From Escherichia coli O157:H7 (GTDB lineage: Bacteria > Pseudomonadota > Gammaproteobacteria > Enterobacterales > Enterobacteriaceae), in assembly GCF_013167455.1 (NCBI RefSeq), contig NZ_CP038328.1: DNA of 64,000 nt; one strand, 5' to 3'. Positions 2,859 through 29,273 of this stretch are shown here, one piece after another; position 1 is the first letter of the stretch; each line of letters begins with the position of its first letter. The notes under the pieces were generated by a model. It worked only from the letters and a program-made list of their open reading frames with translations, ran no database searches and had not been told where the DNA came from. Both the position numbers and the translations under genes were made by a program.

Positions 2859-3105
2859 ATATACAATAATTATTTGCACTGCCCCGCCAGCTGTAATAGC
2901 GGGGCTTCGTTTTTCAGGGGTAACAAACCCCGATACTTCTTCTATTTGCCAGCAACAATGCCTCTCTTCTGTAGCGTTCTTCGGATCTACATCATCCTGA
3001 AGTAGCGCGATATACTCACTGACTATCTGAATCAGAATATAAAAAGCAATGTTTTTAACCTATAAAAATGGCGCTGTATTTGCGCCATTTTTATCATTCA
3101 ATGCA

Positions 3106-20119: not shown

Positions 20120-20669
20120 AGCGTCACCTCCCCGGCAGGCAGCCGTGCAGAAAGGGAGAGTACATAATCTCGGACTAGCAAACGGCGCGCGGAACGCTCA
20201 TCGCAGGAGACAGTGCGAAGCATACAGATGCGGGGGTGAGTGTCAGCACGGCGGATTGCGGCAAACACAAAGACATATTGCGGGTGTGACGGGGTGAGGA
20301 TTGTAGCCATGATGGCAGCCTCCAATAAGTAGCGGTTATTGCTACCACCGGAAACGCCAATTTCACTGGTGGCAGCCCGAACGGGGTTGGCGTAACCGGC
20401 CTTATTGGAAACCGGCCAGCCCGAAGGCTGCCCCGCCCGGACTACCATTATCTCGATAGAACCATGGTGTAAGCATAAACACCACAGCCCTGAAAATGGT
20501 TGTGCCTGAGCTACGACGTAAAAAAAGACGCAAGGGGCGTCAATTGTCGCCAATAAGTTATACGGAACGCCAATTCCGGCTGCCGATTTTGCGACAGCGG
20601 AAAAACTATACCTGGAAATGACGACAGTAAGCAAGCCAGAATAAAGGTATTTAATGTATGCAGGTATCA

Positions 20670-21863: not shown

Positions 21864-22616
21864 ATGACAATCCCAGAACAGAACAATAACCCGATCGTTG
21901 AAATTTCTATCCCTGTTTCGACGCAACAGGCGCTTGAGAAAGTGAATGCCACCAAATCTGCATGGCTTGAAGCACGTCGTCAGCAAAAAGCGGCAGCGGA
22001 TAATATTGCGACAATCCGCCAGCGCCGCGCTGAAATGGAAGCCACGACGAACGCCCTGAATGAGGAGTGGCGCACGCTATTTCGTGAAAGTCAGGGCGTA
22101 GTCTCAAAGGAAATGAAAAAACTGCGCACGGAAATTGCGCTGGGACGAGAAACGCTTGAGGATTTTGATGAGCTGCTGGCGGCTCAGGAAAGCGAAAATG
22201 CACTTTTGCCGCAGGAGGCTGCGGAATTAGCCGGAAAGTATATCCACGCGCACGACACCCTTGTGGGTATTCGCGCAAAACAAATCTGGGAAGATTTTAT
22301 GCAGTCGCATGGAAAAGCACTAATCCAGACACTAAGCCTGCTCAAATCAACAATGGGCAGGGAAGCCAGCGCAGTTGTCGGTGTGGTGCATTCAGTTAAT
22401 GACCCGGACACACTGCTGAAAGATTTTATTCATAAACATATCACCAGACCGGCTCTGACTAACGATGCGATGCCCGAACAGGACCCCGTGTTTAAACTGG
22501 CGGGAGTTGCCCCGGATTATGCGGCCCGTCTGGATTTCAGTAATAAACTCTCTCCAGCAGCTATGCATAAAATGAAGGTTCGTCAGGAACGTGCTGAGAA
22601 GGAGAAAGCAGTATGA
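21864..22616 (+). CDS. P4 Sid-like (capsid size determination) or Psu-family helical protein
   Basis: 250-aa strongly alpha-helical protein, first gene of the rightward satellite operon; size matches Sid. Confidence 0.4.
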   Translation: MTIPEQNNNPIVEISIPVSTQQALEKVNATKSAWLEARRQQKAAADNIATIRQRRAEMEATTNALNEEWRTLFRESQGVVSKEMKKLRTEIALGRETLEDFDELLAAQESENALLPQEAAELAGKYIHAHDTLVGIRAKQIWEDFMQSHGKALIQTLSLLKSTMGREASAVVGVVHSVNDPDTLLKDFIHKHITRPALTNDAMPEQDPVFKLAGVAPDYAARLDFSNKLSPAAMHKMKVRQERAEKEKAV

Positions 22617-23164
22617 TGGCCCGAGTCACTCCAGACCAAGCGCTTATCAGTTTTAGAAATGCCCGTATTCTGTGGGCTGGACATAGTGAGAGCCGAAAAG
22701 CCGTTGAACAACAGATAGAATCACTCCTCACTGCCATGGAAAAACCAGCAGATTATGCTCGACAGCTCGAATTACAGCGGGAACATCTGGATGTGCTGAA
22801 ATGGCAAATTAACTGTGCTGCGCGCGAATGCATTTACTCGCAGCATCAACTGATGGAGGCCTGCACAGAAGACGCTCTCAGCAATTTTATGCAGGCGAAT
22901 GGAGCAGCCCTGACATCTGCACTGGCTCCGTTCCTGAAGGGGCGCGGAGGGGTTGACGTTGCGTCCCGTATATTACGCAATGCTCTGGTTCGCCAGCTGG
23001 CAATAACACCGCCTGAAATTGCCGGGGATTATCGTATGATTCTGGATGAATCCGGTGTGATGCCTGACCCCATGATGGTTCGTGATTGCCAGAGCTCTTA
23101 CACCCCTGCACAACAACTGCGCTTTCAGCAACGTCTGGATTACATTAACGGCATGCAGGAGTAA
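22613..23164 (+). CDS. P4 Psu-like (polarity suppression) protein
   Basis: 183-aa helical protein translationally coupled to preceding gene; size and position match Psu. Confidence 0.4.
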   Translation: MMARVTPDQALISFRNARILWAGHSESRKAVEQQIESLLTAMEKPADYARQLELQREHLDVLKWQINCAARECIYSQHQLMEACTEDALSNFMQANGAALTSALAPFLKGRGGVDVASRILRNALVRQLAITPPEIAGDYRMILDESGVMPDPMMVRDCQSSYTPAQQLRFQQRLDYINGMQE

Positions 23165-23169
23165 TATTA

Positions 23170-23442
23170 ATGGCACTTAAATGTCCCGAATGCGGTACGA
23201 CGGCACACGCCAGAACCTCCGCCTATGAAGCACCATCGGTTAAACGCTCATGGTATCAGTGCCAGAATCTTGAATGTTCCTACACATTTACCGCACTGGA
23301 AAGTGTGGATACGATAATCATGAAGCCCCGGCGCAATGAACAGGAATCAGAGAAAGCACAAATGCCGGAAAAACAACAGCAAACTCTCAATCGCTATGGC
23401 TCCGCGTCAAAGCTGTCAAGCCGTCAGCAAATTCCTGTCTGA
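23170..23442 (+). CDS. Ogr/Delta-family zinc-finger late transcription activator
   Basis: CPECG...AHARTS...YQCQNLECSYTF matches the Ogr/Delta C4 zinc finger. Confidence 0.8.
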   Translation: MALKCPECGTTAHARTSAYEAPSVKRSWYQCQNLECSYTFTALESVDTIIMKPRRNEQESEKAQMPEKQQQTLNRYGSASKLSSRQQIPV

Positions 23443-23851: not shown

Positions 23852-24418
23852 TTAAACAGGATAAAAACCAGAGCTTCCATTCTTATTTAAGTTATGGATT
23901 TTATTTGCATCATTAATTTTTATTTGGAACGTCGGACCTTTATTCTCAAGAATTACAATCTGGAAATTATAGTCCCTTTTGATTAATGCGTGATAAAATG
24001 AATCACTGAGACTGACGCTATTAACATCCGATAGAGAACCCCCTCTATCTTTATCAAAGTGCGTCACTAATGGACTATCAAGCACAACAAATCCAATGAA
24101 TGGATTCCCTTTTCTTGATAAAAATTCCGCAAAGCAAATGGTAAATATAGCATGCATTACTGCACGGGTACCTTTACCAAACATTCCTCGGCGTTTCCCA
24201 TTGATATTAAAGTCATATGTATCTTCGTCAAATCGCACTTTGTTATCTTTAGAATTTTCAAAATTTATATCATTCAAAAAGTCTTGCATCGCTATTTCTA
24301 TATCATACAAATCAGCTACTGTTAAGGAGTCAAAGTCCTCGGCGGAGTATTTAAGTTCGTCAACATCATCTTCTTTATCTTGTAATGAAGATAGAATGCT
24401 ATGTTTTGTGTGATCCAT
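23852..24418 (-). CDS. Cargo ORF F: C-terminal ABC/SMC-like ATPase half (signature-like motif + Walker B-like)
   Basis: GKGTRAVMHAIFTICFAEFL followed by FIGFVVLDSPLVTHFD resembles ABC signature/Walker B/D-loop; start overlaps stop of ORF E (TAATG). Confidence 0.5.
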   Translation of the reverse strand: MDHTKHSILSSLQDKEDDVDELKYSAEDFDSLTVADLYDIEIAMQDFLNDINFENSKDNKVRFDEDTYDFNINGKRRGMFGKGTRAVMHAIFTICFAEFLSRKGNPFIGFVVLDSPLVTHFDKDRGGSLSDVNSVSLSDSFYHALIKRDYNFQIVILENKGPTFQIKINDANKIHNLNKNGSSGFYPV

Positions 24419-25008
24419 TAAAAGATTGTCTTTATATTCATAAAGTGATTCAAGAGATGAATGTATTGTTTTATATTTTTATCTTCTAACGTCTTAAAAT
24501 CACTTTTTTCTGATTGATAAATTTCATTAACATCATTTTTTCTTAACATAATTAATTCATGTTCGCGAACATTAGATCCGATTGATTCAATTAATCCTTT
24601 CAGCTGGCTTTTGATTTTCAATTTTTCTGCATTACACGACAAAAAACAATCATCATATGATATTTCATTTTCTTTTTTTTGCGGTGTATTACAGAACTCA
24701 CAATAAATATCTGCAAAATTATTTAAATAGAAATTCGCCTGTGATACAACATCTATTCTTTGTAGATCTATAAAGTATTGGTCTTTAAGAAGACTAAATC
24801 TTTCAATGAGTAATGATAAGTATTTTTCCCTGTCACTGATTGAATATAATTCATCACTTAACTCTTTTAATAATTGCTTCTTATCATCAAGTGCATCAAC
24901 AATACCTTTCAATATATCTTTCGATGATTCAATATCTTGCTCTACTTTCTCAAGTTCTCTTGAAACAATGACTTGATCATATTCAGGATAAATTAATTGC
25001 GCTTTCAA
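24418..25008 (-). CDS. Cargo ORF E: coiled-coil segment, likely middle part of the same ATPase
   Basis: 196 aa, K/E/L/D-rich helical composition; only TTG start; same frame as ORF D, separated by one TAA. Confidence 0.45.
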   Translation of the reverse strand: MKAQLIYPEYDQVIVSRELEKVEQDIESSKDILKGIVDALDDKKQLLKELSDELYSISDREKYLSLLIERFSLLKDQYFIDLQRIDVVSQANFYLNNFADIYCEFCNTPQKKENEISYDDCFLSCNAEKLKIKSQLKGLIESIGSNVREHELIMLRKNDVNEIYQSEKSDFKTLEDKNIKQYIHLLNHFMNIKTIF

Positions 25009-25038
25009 TTCCTCATAAATATTTGCAATTTGATTTTT

Positions 25039-25698
25039 TTAAAAATATCTTGCTTTTTTATTTGGTTTTTCTGCTAAGGAGTTAGTATCATCTCTCTGAG
25101 TTAAAAGGAATTTAAATTCAGACTTTCTTTTTGTCTCCTCGCTAGGAATATCAGAAAGAATTAACGACTTCTCAGTTAACACTCTTAATTCATCAATACA
25201 AAAAAATTCAAAAACATTATTAAGATTAAATTTATGAAGAGTATTACTTAAGTTTGTTCTTACTTTAGCCTCTTTGAAATTCAACCTACCATAAAAGTAT
25301 GATGAAAAACTCTTTTTAGACGAAGCACTTTTGGAAAAAACCATCAACAGATTAGCTTCACTAACATTTTCAATGCTCGAATCATATAATCTGTAATGGG
25401 CGCTATCCTGAAGAGACCTCTCAATTGTCATTACCCTACCTTGAAAATTAAATTCCAGATAGGCTAAATCATAACCTTGAGCATGATCGATATCTTTATT
25501 TTTTAGTTTTTCACTCCCTAATAAATATCGAATCAAATAATATATGTATGTTTTTCCAGAGTCAGAACCACCATATAAAATAGTCAATTTAGAACCAAAT
25601 TCAATTATAGCATCTAATTTATTGAATCCGGTTACCTTTATTTTTCTGAACGTAAAAAAATTGTCATTCATAATTAAATTCCATATCATATTTGCCAA
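25039..25698 (-). CDS. Cargo ORF D: N-terminal ABC/SMC-like ATPase head (Walker A)
   Basis: FRKIKVTGFNKLDAIIEFGSKLTILYGGSDSGKTYIYYL: SMC/AAA_15-like N-terminal strand plus Walker A GxxxxGKT. Confidence 0.55.
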   Translation of the reverse strand: MANMIWNLIMNDNFFTFRKIKVTGFNKLDAIIEFGSKLTILYGGSDSGKTYIYYLIRYLLGSEKLKNKDIDHAQGYDLAYLEFNFQGRVMTIERSLQDSAHYRLYDSSIENVSEANLLMVFSKSASSKKSFSSYFYGRLNFKEAKVRTNLSNTLHKFNLNNVFEFFCIDELRVLTEKSLILSDIPSEETKRKSEFKFLLTQRDDTNSLAEKPNKKARYF

Positions 25699-26137
25699 TT
25701 TTATTTTTTATAATTGATTGCAACTGCTCATCAGGAATATCACTATATAACTTAACCACCAAATTTATATTATGCTCCATCTGCGCAACATATTCATTAT
25801 GTAGAGAATTTGTAAATGCATATGTTTTTTCAGAAGCTTTATATACAAAACCACGATGTGTATAAATTTTTGAGGCTAGTTCATAGCCTTGCAACAAAGC
25901 CAATGATTCTAAAACAATCTCTCGTTTTAGGGCTAACTGAGCATCTCTACGGGGTATTGGAGGATGAAGACTAATCTCTTCAGGTAAAAAATCCTTAAGA
26001 TTTACTAAAATAAAATCAAAACAAATAAGCCGTTCAAGGCTTAATGAAGAAGGATAAATAGCGACGAGCACTTTCGCCATTCGACATGCCACTTCTAAAC
26101 TTGAATTATAAATTCTAACCATTATCTCACCGTCCAA
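25664..26137 (-). CDS. Cargo ORF C: hypothetical protein
   Basis: 157-aa ORF, AT-rich, overlaps neighbours by 16 and 35 nt; no recognisable motif. Confidence 0.4.
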   Translation of the reverse strand: MDGEIMVRIYNSSLEVACRMAKVLVAIYPSSLSLERLICFDFILVNLKDFLPEEISLHPPIPRRDAQLALKREIVLESLALLQGYELASKIYTHRGFVYKASEKTYAFTNSLHNEYVAQMEHNINLVVKLYSDIPDEQLQSIIKNKIGKYDMEFNYE

Positions 26138-26739
26138 ATTACTTCACCATCATTAACCAAATGATGGCATATTCCTTTTTTATCATTTGCTTCACATATT
26201 TTTGATAGTACTGAATGTGCAATTGGTGTCAGAACAGCCTGCTTCAAGACTGCATTACACCTAATAAATGCATAATTATGGTCTTCATAAAAGACGGGTT
26301 CAATTGAAGATGAAATGTAACATTTCAATGCTTTGAATACATCATCTTTAAATACTTCGCGGACAAAAACCTCAAGCGAAGATGCAAAATAAAAATCATT
26401 TCTACTATTATTAAAGTGTCGTCTGTATGGATCATCAAGCTCTAAGAAAGAACTATAAGTTTTATTTCCATGCTCTGAATAGGCTTGAAGCAGTGCATTA
26501 ACATATACAGACTCTTTTTTTGAATTGTATGTTGGAATTTCATTTGGAGGGATTCTCACGACATACAGCTCGTTAAAGTACTTAAAATAAAGGTGTGTAT
26601 TTGCAATATCATTTAAAATCAATGATAAGGGTAGAGAGTAAAAAATACTAAAATCAAAATCCTCAATATATTTTTTTATTTCATCATCTAATGGAATATC
26701 AATCTTTTTAGTTATTTTTTTGAAATTGCTGAATCCCAT
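26122..26739 (-). CDS. Cargo ORF B: hypothetical protein (possibly C-terminal part of a frameshifted gene with ORF A)
   Basis: 205-aa ORF overlapping ORF A by 28 nt across an A7 homopolymer. Confidence 0.4.
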   Translation of the reverse strand: MGFSNFKKITKKIDIPLDDEIKKYIEDFDFSIFYSLPLSLILNDIANTHLYFKYFNELYVVRIPPNEIPTYNSKKESVYVNALLQAYSEHGNKTYSSFLELDDPYRRHFNNSRNDFYFASSLEVFVREVFKDDVFKALKCYISSSIEPVFYEDHNYAFIRCNAVLKQAVLTPIAHSVLSKICEANDKKGICHHLVNDGEVIWTVR

Positions 26740-27017
26740 GAATCAAGGACTGCTTTTTTAAGCTCGTTTTTATTTTTCAATAAATTAGAAAATGTAGTAG
26801 ATAAATCATAGGGTGCCACAAAAAAGTACTTCTGAGGGATGGGATAATCACCATTCAGAGTAAAATAGATAAGTTTTCCAAACTCAACTACAACATCAGA
26901 GAACCCTAAACTTTTTTTGTACAGTTTGCATTGATAATTATCCCAAGAATAACCTTCTACGTTAGGATCCGATTTATATCCAACAACGTCTCTACCTTTA
27001 TCTCCAGCTCCTCCCAA
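26712..27017 (-). CDS. Cargo ORF A: Mrr-cat-like PD-(D/E)xK nuclease motif protein (no ATG start; possibly disrupted)
   Basis: GGAGDKGRDVVGY ... YQCKLYKK resembles the Mrr catalytic motifs (GDGGIDG ... QxK); frame stays open upstream to ATG GGA TGA TGA at 27087-27098. Confidence 0.4.
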   Translation of the reverse strand: MGGAGDKGRDVVGYKSDPNVEGYSWDNYQCKLYKKSLGFSDVVVEFGKLIYFTLNGDYPIPQKYFFVAPYDLSTTFSNLLKNKNELKKAVLDSWDSAISKK

Positions 27018-27130
27018 ACGTTCGCTCCACGGGTAATCATCTGATTTACAGACAATAAGCCAATCATGGACAAATACCTCCCATGTTCATCATCCCATGT
27101 CAATATTTCCGAAAGTGGTTGAGACACAAA

Positions 27131-28312
27131 TTAACTCCTTTTTAGTCTTTCAAATATCAAATTACTGTACCAGTCCATCATAGACTTCCTTCCACTAAAA
27201 TATTGAGCATGGTTATAAGTCCCCCTAATAGAATTTTTATCTACATGAGCCAACTGGATTTCAATCCAAGCACTCTCAAAACCTTGCTCATGCAGGATTG
27301 TAGAAAGGGTATGACGAAAACCATGTCCAGTGACTTTTCCTCCATACCCAATACGCTTAATGGCTTGATTTATACTCGCTTCGCTCATTGGCCTATTCGG
27401 ATCGTTCCGCCCTGGAAAAACATAACGATAGTTCCCTGTCATGATCTTGAGTTCATTGAGTAAATCTACCGCTTGAGATGATAAGGGCACAAGATGTGGC
27501 CTACGCATTTTCATCCTTTCAGCAGGAATTTCCCAAATAGCGTTATCCAGATCAAATTCTTGCCATAATGCCGCGCGTAATTCGATGGTTCTCACACCCG
27601 TAATCATCAGTAATTTCGTGGCTATCTGGACAAGCTTACTCCCGGAGTAACCCTCTAAGGCACGTAGAAAATCAGGTATCTCATCAGCTTTTAGGAATGG
27701 GAAATGATTGGATTGGTGTACTTCGAGAGCGCTGGAGAGATCAGCCGCAGGATTGTACTCCGCCCTACCCGTTGCAATTGCGTAGCGAAACACTTCGGAG
27801 CAACGCTGCCGCACTTTGCGCATTTTCTCCAACGCACCACGTTTCTCAATTTTACGCAGAACGTTCAGCAGCTCTAGCGGTTTAATCTCTCCCACAGGCC
27901 TTGTTCCGACATAAGGAAAAATGTCGTTCTTAAACGCTTCCATGATGTCTGATGCATATCCCGCCGACCATTTAGCAGATTTAAGTTGATGCCACTCTCT
28001 GGCTATCTTTTCGAAGGCGTTCTCTGACTCTGTTTGCATAGCTAGCTTTTGCTCTTTTCGAACCTCACTAGGGTTCTTTCCTTCTGCCACAAGTTTTCGA
28101 GCTTCATCACGACGGGAACGAGCATCGGCAAGGGTGATCGTTGGGTAAACACCAAGCGAGATCATTTTGGGTTTGCCGGCATAGCGATAGCGGAACCGCC
28201 AACTCTTGCTTCCATTAGGTTCTATAAGTAATGACAACCCTAGCCCATCTCCAAATGTATAGGCTTTAGCTTCAGGCTTAGCGCGGCGAATCTGCATATC
28301 GTTTAAAGGCAT
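27131..28312 (-). CDS. int: P4-type tyrosine integrase
   Basis: N-terminal P4-integrase-like region (AKAYTFGDGLGLSLLIEPNGSKSWRFRYRYAGK); C-terminal catalytic region with RxxHGFRHT..Y residues; adjacent to tRNA-derived att. Confidence 0.85.
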   Translation of the reverse strand: MPLNDMQIRRAKPEAKAYTFGDGLGLSLLIEPNGSKSWRFRYRYAGKPKMISLGVYPTITLADARSRRDEARKLVAEGKNPSEVRKEQKLAMQTESENAFEKIAREWHQLKSAKWSAGYASDIMEAFKNDIFPYVGTRPVGEIKPLELLNVLRKIEKRGALEKMRKVRQRCSEVFRYAIATGRAEYNPAADLSSALEVHQSNHFPFLKADEIPDFLRALEGYSGSKLVQIATKLLMITGVRTIELRAALWQEFDLDNAIWEIPAERMKMRRPHLVPLSSQAVDLLNELKIMTGNYRYVFPGRNDPNRPMSEASINQAIKRIGYGGKVTGHGFRHTLSTILHEQGFESAWIEIQLAHVDKNSIRGTYNHAQYFSGRKSMMDWYSNLIFERLKRS

Positions 28313-28474
28313 GTGTATAGGAATCCAGACCGAACAGGAACATATACACAATCCTATACACATTCAGTACCGGATTCTACTGGATGGTTACGGACTACTA
28401 TGGACTTAAAAGAATAAAAAATGTTATAAATCAGAGATTTTATGGACTAATACGGACGTTTGAGGAAGTTGAGA

Positions 28475-28520
28475 TGGTGCCGATAATAGGAGTCGAACCT
28501 ACGACCTTCGCATTACGAAT
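28475..28520 (-). repeat. 46-nt 3' fragment of tRNA-Thr (thrW-like): integrase-proximal att of the P4-like island, not an intact tRNA
   Basis: Reverse complement ATTCGTAATGCGAAGGTCGTAGGTTCGACTCCTATTATCGGCACCA is the anticodon-to-CCA part of tRNA-Thr(CGU) as recalled; 5' half absent. Confidence 0.7.
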
Positions 28521-28559
28521 TATAAGAATCCGCTTCTAATTCAAAGCATTACCCCATCA

Positions 28560-29273
28560 ACACTGCGCTCACACGTCCCACCACATCAAAACATGTAAAG
28601 CCTTGCAAGCCATTGCGAGGCCTTATGTGTCTCAGTTTTGTCCCACCTTGTATTACGACTTGCATAGCCAATGAAGATAAACGTGACGACAAACGGCGCA
28701 GCAGTCTTCTTTTCTTTCACGACTTCTCCAGCATGCATACCTTTCTGCCATGACTGAAGTGAATGCCTGTTATGAGCGAGGATTGGCCCAGATGAATCGC
28801 CCTGGACTGTTGCGATCGTGAAGCCATAGACTGGGCCGCAAGCACGGGAGGTTACGATAAAGCGACAGTGCAGGATGTCATGTTAGGAGCGATAGAAAAA
28901 CGCTTTGGCGATAAAGTACCGGAACAGTCCATCCAGTGGCTGACAGATAACGGTTCAGCGTATAGAGCGCATGAAACACGGCAGTTCGCCAGAGAGTTGA
29001 ATCTGGAGCCCTGCACAACGGCAATCAGCAGTCCTCAGAGTAATGGAATTGCAGAAAGGTTCGTGAAAACGATGAAGGAAGACTATATCGCGTTCATGCC
29101 GAAACCGAATGTAAGAACGGCATTGCATAATCTTGCAGTGGCGATCGAACATTACAATGAAAACCATCCGCACAGTGCGTTGGGTTATCGCTCTCCGCGA
29201 GAATATCGACGTCAGCGGGTAACGTTAACTTAAGATACACCCCCTGTCTGGAAATAAGGGGGCAAGAACAATG
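28560..29273 (+). mobile_element. 5'-truncated IS2-like (IS3 family) element with terminal inverted repeat
   Basis: OrfB C-terminus ([21 protein letters not shown]...[14 protein letters not shown]) followed by IS2-like end TGTCTGGAAATAAGGGGGCAA; left part degenerate, starts next to tRNA fragment. Confidence 0.55.
28868..29233 (+). pseudogene. IS3-family transposase OrfB C-terminal fragment
   Basis: 121-aa ORF covering only the end of the DDE integrase core; upstream frames broken. Confidence 0.6.

Follow-up and report, generated by a model that had tools for sequence, protein, structure and literature searches.

Inactivating mutations, an in-frame TAA among them, in an apparent type II Lamassu remnant of the P4-like prophage Sp2/CP-933I of Escherichia coli O157:H7

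Background

In Lamassu systems, two LmuB protomers together with LmuC hold a monomer of LmuA inactive (PMC12663957; bioRxiv 10.1101/2025.03.14.643221 and 10.1101/2025.06.23.660979). When DNA ends or phage replication are sensed, LmuA is freed, tetramerises and cuts DNA, and the infection is aborted, as described in the same three sources for Lamassu subtypes other than the one considered here; these sources also report that Lamassu is toxic on expression. The motifs of LmuB have been defined as a Walker A, a coiled coil that may or may not bear a CxxC hook, and a Walker B of the form hhhhD[Q/S/T/E] (PMC12663957), and SbcCD is given as the origin of Lamassu in a published phylogeny. The best-studied type II Lamassu (ABC-3C) systems are DdmABC of Vibrio cholerae and LmuACB of Salmonella enterica. 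In P4-like satellites, the region between int and psu was defined as a defence hotspot by Rousset et al. 2022 (PMC9122126). For P4 elements it has also been reported that less than 1% of pseudogenes resemble defence genes, and argued that the systems are swapped before they decay (bioRxiv 10.64898/2026.02.27.708500).

Here we analysed an operon within a stretch of 64,000 nucleotides from E. coli O157:H7 (NZ_CP038328.1; the whole stretch is referred to as the window), in which the reading frame of an ATPase is interrupted by an in-frame TAA inside a homopolymer. The original prediction had named recent pseudogenisation, homopolymer sequencing errors and slippage-based phase variation of a costly defence gene as possible explanations.

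Results and discussion

Operon identity and prophage setting

The minus strand of the window carries a three-gene operon of the type II Lamassu (ABC-3C) kind, with overlapping genes in the order lmuA-lmuC-lmuB, in which lmuA corresponds to an Mrr-like nuclease with CTD6, lmuC to MC2 and lmuB to an SMC-like ABC ATPase (Table 1). Gene order and overlaps are as in DdmABC and LmuACB, and the architecture of LmuB, the position of LmuC between lmuA and lmuB and the effector-CTD fusion in LmuA are those of type II Lamassu. LmuB resembles that of short Lamassu in its length of ~600 aa, its Walker A, its coiled coil with one CxxC hook and its deviant Walker B hhhhD[S], and the small LmuC and an LmuA with an N-terminal PD-(D/E)xK nuclease and a helical C-terminal domain are likewise shared with type II Lamassu. 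In contrast to the solved Lamassu, which have Cap4, CTD7 and MC3, the cassette has an Mrr-like nuclease, CTD6 and MC2, and it differs from working Lamassu in carrying four inactivating lesions in O157. Our literature search found no paper testing an Mrr/CTD6/MC2 cassette.

An intact LmuB orthologue matched the PADLOC LmuB profile at 3.4e-117 over residues 6-605. LmuB shares with Rad50/SbcC-type SMC-like ABC ATPases the N-terminal Walker A, the C-terminal Walker B and a long coiled coil that bears a CxxC hook. It is much shorter, however, its operon is a defence operon whose effector is sequestered, and it matches Pfam AAA_23 and AAA_15 weakly, the hits of the intact protein being sub-threshold only. 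None of the seven fragments had a match in NCBIfam. PF20288 (MC2) was found on lmuC orthologues; lmuC alone in the operon has kept an intact frame, and it shows a single amino-acid change.

An intact LmuA homologue matched PADLOC LmuA at E=2e-87 and Pfam CTD6 at 4e-29. Pfam alone gave only CTD6, and it took the set of homologues and a model of the structure to find the nuclease domain. Among 50 homologues, CTD6 was detected in all and Mrr_cat in 3 at E<=0.001 and in 15 at E<=0.1, and residues D43, D47, Q66 and K68 are invariant in all 50. The AlphaFold model has a pLDDT of 93 and its best Foldseek matches are solved LmuA chains, with a probability of 1.0 and a global TM-score of only ~0.3; phmmer searches of PDB sequences revealed no similarity of LmuA or LmuB to solved chains at E<=1.

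The host element is the P4-like satellite prophage Sp2/CP-933I. A 3.4-kb query matched the O157:H7 chromosome at 100% identity, and the Sakai annotation names the locus "prophage Sp2, P4-like phage". The operon lies between the integrase and delta/psu, i.e. in the known P4 defence hotspot, and the element has sid, psu, delta, an alpha primase and the CI (C4) RNA; no tRNA attachment site was found within the window. The slot is that of the int-psu cassettes described for P4 (PMC9122126), and the same cassette occurs in P4-like elements of Pantoea, where two loci (L006 and L007) have the order int-lmuACB-delta-psu-sid. The inactive system synthesised from "O157:H7 FRIK944" by Rousset et al. 2022 (PMC9122126) was considered as a candidate for this locus and rejected, since the FRIK944 system is another cassette, a two-gene one with a cytidine deaminase.

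Table 1. Positions in the window of the operon, its lesions and motifs, and the flanking prophage genes
Feature	Position	Strand	Remark
C4 antisense RNA (CI)	20365-20452		P4-like element
sid (21864-22616), psu (22613-23164), delta/ogr (23170-23442)	21864-23442	+	other edge of the hotspot; annotation of Sakai and EDL933
lmuB pseudogene (ORFs D + E + F)	23852-25671	-	one 606-aa SMC-like ABC ATPase in intact relatives
lmuB Walker B FVVLDS	24074-24091	-	still readable in the O157 fragments
TAATG, stop of E overlapping ATG of F	24416-24420	-	ATG is an internal Met of intact lmuB (…DNLLMDYTKH…)
lmuB A5 run (A6 in Proteus), 1-bp deletion	24476-24480	-	real E/F frameshift; in 13/13 E. coli alleles read
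lmuB zinc hook CEFC	24691-24702	-	still readable in the O157 fragments
In-frame TAA, lmuB codon 211, Leu TTA to TAA	25039-25041	-	T-to-A at 25040; T6A6 to T5A7, tract length unchanged
lmuB Walker A GGSDSGKT	25549-25572	-	still readable in the O157 fragments
lmuC (ORF C), 152 aa, ABC-3C middle component 2	25664-26122	-	RefSeq product name; PADLOC LmuC 3.3e-35 for the intact orthologue
lmuA pseudogene (ORFs A + B + short upstream ORF 26957-27127)	26122-27127	-	one 335-aa protein in intact relatives
lmuA A7 run (coding strand), 1-bp deletion splitting A from B	26715-26721	-	in 13/13 E. coli alleles read
Predicted LmuA catalytic motifs GDKGRD (26988-27005) and YQCK (26925-26936)	26925-27005	-	residues invariant in homologues
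lmuA 1-bp deletion, coding strand GAACAATGG to GAACATGG	27083-27085 (~27084)	-	from alignment with Sakai, EDL933 and all other alleles read
intS, P4-type tyrosine integrase	27131-28363	-	directly upstream of the operon; one edge of the int-psu hotspot

Fragments of single genes

Intact relatives of the operon in Proteus mirabilis and Pantoea encode proteins of 335, 152 and 606 aa, the first with an Mrr-like PD-(D/E)xK nuclease domain and the ABC-3C CTD6. The closest full-length lmuB products are from P. mirabilis (606 aa, 85% identity, 100% coverage) and Pantoea (73%), and 24 more full-length LmuB proteins of 594-612 aa were found; these 26 homologues span 97-100% of D+E+F. DNA alignment with five intact loci revealed single-base differences only at the breaks, and D+E+F and A+B are each collinear with one ORF of the intact homologues, a pattern that is not random. 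On this comparison, D, E and F clearly appear to be fragments of one lmuB, and A and B of one lmuA. The 335-codon lmuA is a single ORF in three of the loci (L005, L007 and L008) and its frame is open in the other two (L004 and L006). Gene calls of 145 and 201 aa in NCBI assemblies of Proteus and Pantoea had the look of further lmuA breaks but are differences in gene calling, since the frame in these assemblies is open over all 335 codons.

Lesions in lmuB and lmuA

ORFs D (25039-25698) and E (24418-25008) share one minus-strand frame and are parted only by the TAA, reading ...KKARYF*KNQIANIYEELKAQ, which agrees with the original prediction, as does the setting of the stop in T7 (25034-25040) and A5 (25041-25045) of the plus strand, i.e. 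T5A7 of the coding strand. Frame E is indeed free of stops, for 206 codons after the TAA; the 196 codons first given are counted from its first start candidate, a TTG located 10 codons past the TAA. Codon 211 is TTA in Proteus, O55:H7, LSU61 and 493/89 and CTG in Pantoea, and in 493/89 D and E form one ORF of 417 aa. The TAA is a product of substitution and not of slippage, and because the tract length was left unchanged, slippage cannot revert it. The homopolymer around the stop is no more than chance would give, because the operon has a G+C content of 31% and 13.7 homopolymers of at least 5 nt per kb (45 in 3.28 kb; the remainder of the window has 4.6 per kb); eight of its runs reach at least 7 nt. 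We read the break in the ATPase frame as a real and fixed nonsense mutation in an ordinary pseudogene, in an operon that was broken already.

E and F had been described as joined by TAATG in different frames. The motif and the change of frame are there, but the break itself is a 1-bp deletion ~60 nt upstream, in the A5 run: upstream of the ATG of F, from 24478 on, frame F has no stop and its translation agrees with the intact protein (KYK.IH..LESLYEYKDNLL). The TAATG overlap is a by-product of this frameshift.

In lmuA, the A/B overlap does cross a 7-nt homopolymer, although its coordinates are 26715-26721 and the earlier 26716-26722 was off by one; the site reads AAT AAA A or AAG AAA A in intact relatives. 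Upstream of ORF A, the frame is closed at ATG GGA TGA TGA (27087-27098) as noted before, but the absence of a start is not a matter of homopolymers: ORF A has none because of the 1-bp deletion at ~27084, which removes the GTG start and the first 14 codons and sits in a dinucleotide, not in a long run. Among the 30 matches listed, this deletion was confined to the window and the four records identical to it, and the corresponding RefSeq CDS in ECP19-598 is marked "frameshifted".

Base-by-base alignment thus counts four lesions in the window (~27084, 26715-26721, 25039-25041 and 24476-24480). The operon is not intact, with one frameshift in lmuA (two in the window) and a frameshift plus the TAA in lmuB, and the O157 locus clearly appears to be a remnant of a Lamassu member and not a functional one.

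Distribution in E. coli and order of decay

We searched 5,426 complete E. coli genomes for the locus and found 308 carriers, the only ones, all at an identity of at least 99%. Thirteen alleles were read base by base and the other carriers were classed by BLAST scores and lengths; TAA and TTA were told apart with a query of 161 nt that had the ancestral allele. Both frameshifts, in the A7 run of lmuA and the A5 run of lmuB, were present in 13/13 alleles read, and none of the 308 carriers had an allele better than the Sakai type when compared with the repaired query. TTA was retained in exactly 10 of the 308 records (eight O55:H7-type, 493/89 and LSU61), which are early-branching genomes, and TAA is fixed in typical O157:H7, so that the split tracks the known lineage order exactly.

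The decay in the O55:H7/O157:H7 lineage proceeded in three steps. First, at a time preceding the last common ancestor of the alleles read, lmuA (26715-26721) and lmuB (24476-24480) were each frameshifted by a 1-bp deletion in an A run. After 493/89 (sorbitol-fermenting O157) and LSU61 had split off, the T-to-A change turned Leu211 from TTA into TAA, which was then fixed in typical O157:H7. Subsequently, separate sublineages gained homopolymer indels, an IS1203 insertion, a deletion of ~670 bp and the ~27084 deletion of the window. The indels comprise -1 in DEC5D and +1 in LSU61 in the A6 run at 24504-24509, +1 in DEC5B in the A6 run at 24536-24542, -1 in the TW14359/272/CEC01302 clade in the A8 run at 24673-24680 and -1 in OkiPb01699 in the T7 run at 25654-25660. 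The +1 of LSU61, which lies upstream of the shared -1, was examined as a restorer of the frame and rejected, as the shifted 29-nt segment contains stops. The first inactivation may have been selected for through the toxicity of Lamassu to its host, or may have been neutral.

The repaired O157 allele gave a dN/dS of ~0.1 against Proteus and Pantoea, and changes within E. coli were 10 non-synonymous (one of them the nonsense mutation) to 3 synonymous (Fisher p=0.007 vs 131:219). Together with the existence of intact 606-aa and 335-aa orthologues, these values bear out the suggestion of a recent pseudogenisation of a defence gene. We consider it very probable, as one joint judgement on the whole explanation, that the TAA belongs to a set of inactivating mutations that left a type II ("short", Mrr-effector) Lamassu/ABC-3C operon of the Sp2/CP-933I int-psu hotspot dead, that D, E, F, A and B are pseudogene fragments and not separate genes, and that the homopolymers act as hotspots of mutation in DNA of 31% GC and not as a switch.

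The surviving fragments and lmuC keep open frames of 100-220 codons, which could be read as retention; such frames fit neutrality because few mutations have occurred in a young clone.

Alternative explanations

Programmed recoding at A AAA AAA TAA of the coding strand (26712-26721), by slippage of either the ribosome or RNA polymerase, could give a full-length LmuA, or the surviving pieces, namely intact LmuC, the CTD6 fragment of LmuA and the head fragments of LmuB, could have acquired a new role, e.g. in interfering with the Lamassu of a competing element. Frame A ends in ...TCA AAA AAA TAA, and a -1 shift would yield ...SKK followed by ITKKIDIPL, collinear with intact LmuA (SAISKKISKKVDIPL in Pantoea); the preserved and almost unchanged lmuC would suit a salvaged function. 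We nevertheless hold both ideas to be very unlikely. The ORFs of the homologues are uninterrupted at all three sites and have no slippery tract at the lmuA site, which is therefore not conserved, the E/F site GAT AAA AAT does not fit the canonical heptamer X XXY YYZ, and LmuB, needed for DNA sensing and restraint of LmuA, has two or three lesions including the TAA. Moreover, the substitutions in E. coli look unconstrained, and sublineages keep gaining lesions, an IS element and a deletion. Very little probability also attaches to a remnant that would not be inert, either through unrestrained full-length LmuA made by -1 slippage at 26712-26721 or through LmuC and the CTD6 fragment acting as decoys that poison an incoming Lamassu; if true, such a remnant would give the satellite an anti-defence or interference function derived from a decayed defence operon.

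A phase-variable contingency locus, in which homopolymer slippage would turn Lamassu on and off within the population, is exceedingly improbable. Of the four lesions of the window, three are found within A/T runs or next to them, run lengths differ among lineages (DEC5D, LSU61, DEC5B, the TW14359 clade and OkiPb01699), and a switch would be biologically sensible for a system that is toxic when expressed. However, no ON allele was found in 308 carriers, and each length change seen adds a lesion to a broken gene and none restores the frame. Furthermore, a switch would need the joint reversion of two or more independent frameshifts, located in two genes, the TAA is beyond the reach of slippage, and the lmuA site of intact orthologues (AAT AAAA or AAG AAAA) is not a pure tract. 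The proposal of slippage-based phase variation thus finds no support.

Homopolymer miscalls in genes that are truly intact have next to no probability. The lesions do lie in or adjoin homopolymers, the ~27084 deletion occurs in only four records among those listed, and the TW14359 record has an extra 1-bp change in its A8 run, but two frameshifts common to every allele read, with no carrier closer to the repaired query than the Sakai type, and a strictly lineage-sorted TAA/TTA codon refute sequencing error as the cause. The A8-to-A7 change recurs in US, UK and Japanese assemblies that are independent of one another, and the ~27084 deletion sits in a dinucleotide in four assemblies.

It is likewise scarcely conceivable that D, E, F, A and B are truly separate small genes of a multi-subunit system with a split ATPase: RefSeq PGAP lists separate CDSs in most O157 genomes and the TAATG overlap looks like translational coupling, but 26/26 full-length homologues and every intact locus have a single, uninterrupted LmuB of 594-612 aa and LmuA of 335 aa instead of the same ORF boundaries, the split architecture was not found in distant lineages, the fragment edges coincide with single-base lesions, ORF E has no proper start, and the Sakai RefSeq record calls the D-F span a pseudogene.

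Implications

The main value of the analysis is a clean negative, in which a striking stop in a homopolymer comes down to ordinary gene decay. The Sakai RefSeq record already flags the D-F span as a pseudogene, ECs_0293, "AAA family ATPase". For most O157:H7 genomes the PGAP annotation is corrected, the five genes named "hypothetical protein" or "AAA family ATPase" being fragments, and in counts of defence systems of O157:H7 the Lamassu at this locus should not be scored as functional. In addition, the lesions provide ordered lineage markers, with two frameshifts in all O55:H7/O157 alleles read, the TAA in typical O157:H7 and later clade-specific indels. Unlike what was claimed for P4 hotspots (bioRxiv 10.64898/2026.02.27.708500), the decayed system was inherited vertically through the history from O55:H7 to O157:H7, and the locus is a documented counter-example to swapping before decay.

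Identity and setting of the interrupted operon

The in-frame TAA between ORFs D and E is real but ordinary: a P4-like satellite prophage carries a decayed Lamassu operon here, and the TAA is a nonsense SNP in it. Of the explanations first proposed, it is pseudogenisation of a defence gene that holds. As originally predicted, D and E lie in one frame with the TAA alone between them, inside a plus-strand T7 run (25034-25040) followed by A5 (25041-25045); TAATG (24416-24420) links ORFs E and F of different frames, and the ORF A frame is closed upstream by ATG GGA TGA TGA (27087-27098). The frame of ORF D stays open for 206 further codons past the TAA, reaching 24418, the 196 codons first reported for E being counted from its first TTG (25006-25008). 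ORFs A and B do overlap across a 7-nt run, the position of which had been one base off. The operon stretch of 3.28 kb has a G+C content of 31% and contains 45 homopolymer runs of at least 5 nt (13.7/kb vs 4.6/kb in the rest of the window); the homopolymer setting of the lesions is in itself unremarkable.

A search with the joined D+E+F protein yielded 26 full-length homologues (594-612 aa, query coverage 97-100%), the best from Proteus mirabilis (606 aa, 85% identity) and Pantoea alhagi (606 aa, 73%). Their loci consist of three overlapping genes encoding proteins of 335 aa (Pfam CTD6), 152 aa (Pfam MC2) and 606 aa, and PADLOC models identified the three proteins as LmuA (2e-87), LmuC (3e-35) and LmuB (3e-117). 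The operon is a type II Lamassu, alias ABC-3C, system, with A and B as fragments of lmuA, C as lmuC and D, E and F as fragments of lmuB. Residues D43, D47, Q66 and K68 of LmuA are invariant across homologues, of which 3/50 matched Pfam Mrr_cat at E<=0.001 and 15/50 at E<=0.1. The AlphaFold model of intact LmuA (pLDDT 93) had the solved LmuA chains 9nxx, 9hqx and 9uxh as top PDB matches (probability 1.0, TM-score ~0.3), followed by the PD-(D/E)xK nucleases MspJI, Cap4 and FokI. In the LmuB fragments a Walker A motif (GGSDSGKT), a CEFC hook and a Walker B motif (FVVLDS) are readable, the last fitting the deviant hhhhD[S] form reported for short Lamassu.

Over its 3.4 kb the region matches E. coli O157:H7 chromosomes at 100% identity, and it is annotated in Sakai as 'prophage Sp2, P4-like phage', named CP-933I in EDL933. 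The operon lies between the integrase gene intS and the genes delta/ogr, psu and sid, and the int-psu interval is a defence hotspot of P4-like satellites (PMC9122126). In Pantoea, too, the cassette is found between int and delta-psu-sid in a P4-like element, whereas the closest intact lmuACB cassette (P. mirabilis loci L004 and L005, 6543-9821, 89% nucleotide identity) lies outside any P4-like element, in another island adjacent to smpB that also has a DUF927 primase-like gene and a different integrase; thus the cassette moves between unrelated mobile elements. With its C4 and isrK RNAs, the satellite appears to keep an RNA-based immunity module despite its dead defence cargo. ARAGORN found no tRNA gene in the whole window, so the attachment-site tRNA of the satellite is not adjacent here.

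Lamassu systems and the hotspot were already known, and the Sakai RefSeq record already lists the D-F span as a pseudogene (ECs_0293, 'AAA family ATPase'); most PGAP annotations give the pieces as separate CDSs. Our modest additions are an order of the lesions in the lineage from O55:H7 to O157:H7, a correction of annotations and defence-system counts that treat the fragments as genes, and a case in which a defence cassette has stayed in a P4 hotspot as a pseudogene, a situation reported as rare in a recent survey (bioRxiv 10.64898/2026.02.27.708500).

Features of the window and changes in related alleles
Feature	Position	Strand	Details
IS009 RNA family match	2901-3100	minus	Rfam, 191 bits; far from the TAA
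C4 antisense RNA	20365-20452	minus	Rfam, 84 bits; CI-type RNA of the satellite, P4-like immunity region
isrK Hfq-binding sRNA	20521-20598	minus	Rfam, 72 bits; P4-like immunity region
lmuB E/F frameshift	24476-24480	minus	1-bp loss; A5 in E. coli, A6 in Proteus
Later change, A6 run	24504-24509		-1 in DEC5D, +1 in LSU61
Later change, A6 run	24536-24542		+1 in DEC5B
Later change, A8 to A7 (T8 on plus strand)	24673-24680		Clade including TW14359, UK strain 272, Japanese strain CEC01302
ORF D	25039-25698	minus	Terminates in TAA, 25039-25041
Nonsense change	25040	minus	lmuB codon 211: TTA (Leu) in Proteus, CTG in Pantoea, TAA here
~670-bp deletion	25040-25709		One sequenced isolate, Logan run SRR7251010 (locus L018)
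Later change, T7 to T6	25654-25660		OkiPb01699
IS1203 (IS3-family) insertion	N-terminal lmuB fragment		O157:H7 strain M1300706002 (locus L011)
lmuA frameshift	26715-26721	minus	1-bp loss; A7 in E. coli, AAT AAAA in Proteus, AAG AAAA in Pantoea
1-bp loss in AA dinucleotide	~27084	minus	Window vs Sakai, EDL933 and every other allele read
Truncated IS3-family transposase (ISEc48 partial, rve core domain)	28384-29233		Just past the P4 integrase

Lesions and population history

When five intact loci were aligned base by base to the window and to Sakai, the length differences were of single bases only. One such loss divides lmuA into A and B. The E/F break, first placed at TAATG, is a true frameshift ~60 nt upstream of it, from which the F frame is open and homologous (KYKTIHSSLESLYEYKDNLLMD…). 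At the stop T6A6 became T5A7 with tract length unchanged, hence a T-to-A substitution and not slippage.

Among 5,426 complete E. coli genomes, 308 carry the locus, with at least 99% identity in every copy, and the organism names among the matches listed are O157:H7, O157 or O55:H7 without exception. Both frameshifts occur in 13/13 E. coli alleles aligned, including O55:H7 DEC5B and DEC5D, LSU61 and 493/89. The ancestral TTA is retained in exactly 10 records of the census, seven labelled O55:H7 (RM12579, USDA5905, DEC5A, DEC5B, DEC5D, DEC5E and TB182A) plus FDAARGOS_946 (a name without serotype), LSU61 and the sorbitol-fermenting O157 strain 493/89, in which D+E form a single ORF of 417 aa; TAA is present in all typical O157:H7 genomes. 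Thus the TAA is a clade-defining SNP in an already dead gene. The later changes, the IS1203 insertion and the ~670-bp deletion are independent further lesions. The A8 to A7 change shortens fragment E to 129 aa (WP_000647286.1) and could act as a clade marker. The ~670-bp deletion has one endpoint in each of two A-rich microhomologies, ATAAAAAAT close to the 3' end of lmuC and the T5A7 tract; fragment D is lost, and lmuC and fragment E become an in-frame fusion that encodes a 344-aa protein (P0027).

Slippage-based phase variation of the defence locus, as also suggested originally, is not supported: an ON allele was not found among the carrier genomes of the census, where none scored better than the Sakai type against the conceptually repaired operon; each tract change seen adds damage, two genes are hit, and slippage cannot revert the TAA. 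That the remnant has some retained or new function is very improbable. In O157 the sequence at the lmuA break is A AAA AAA TAA, where slippage by -1 would yield a protein collinear with intact LmuA, but this would not restore the system since LmuB is destroyed. Homopolymer sequencing errors are excluded as the source of the stops and frameshifts, because the lesions are reproducible across the alleles read and the TAA vs TTA distribution is coherent by lineage. Conserved programmed recoding is excluded by the plain ORFs of the homologues.

Selection and timing of inactivation

The repaired O157 genes have dN/dS values of 0.06-0.12 against Proteus and Pantoea orthologues; purifying selection acted on the allele through most of its past. 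Within E. coli alleles 10/13 substitutions are non-synonymous or nonsense, a ratio near neutral expectation that departs from the earlier 131:219 (Fisher p=0.007). Compared with the divergence from the Proteus allele, the inactivation is a recent event, but it predates the last common ancestor of the alleles read from O55:H7 and O157:H7.

Cryo-EM of the V. cholerae and S. enterica systems has shown that monomeric LmuA is sequestered in an LmuB2-LmuC-LmuA complex, that its release is triggered by DNA ends or phage replication, that freed LmuA forms a nuclease-active tetramer leading to death of the infected cell, and that Lamassu expression is frequently toxic in E. coli (PMC12663957; bioRxiv 10.1101/2025.03.14.643221; 10.1101/2025.06.23.660979). 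By analogy, intact Mrr/CTD6/MC2 orthologues would follow the same sequester-release logic. The O157 copy is unable to work this way because full-length LmuA and LmuB are both absent. The first loss may have been either favoured by the cost of autoimmunity or neutral.

Decay has continued in the window strain, where the loss at ~27084 cuts the GTG start and first 14 codons from ORF A, which therefore seemed to lack a start. Four records among the 30 matches listed are identical to the window, and in one of them, ECP19-598, PGAP marks the CDS as 'frameshifted'. The partial ISEc48 transposase marks the boundary with the lambda-like prophage Sp1. At this Sp1/Sp2 junction the window strain differs from Sakai and EDL933 by four SNPs (28778, 29086, 29239 and 30026), two of which break C-runs (CCCCCCC to CACCCCC and CCCCCC to CACCC); the four SNPs and the 27084 deletion group the window with ECP19-598, 17B6-2, G5295 and FRIK1989.
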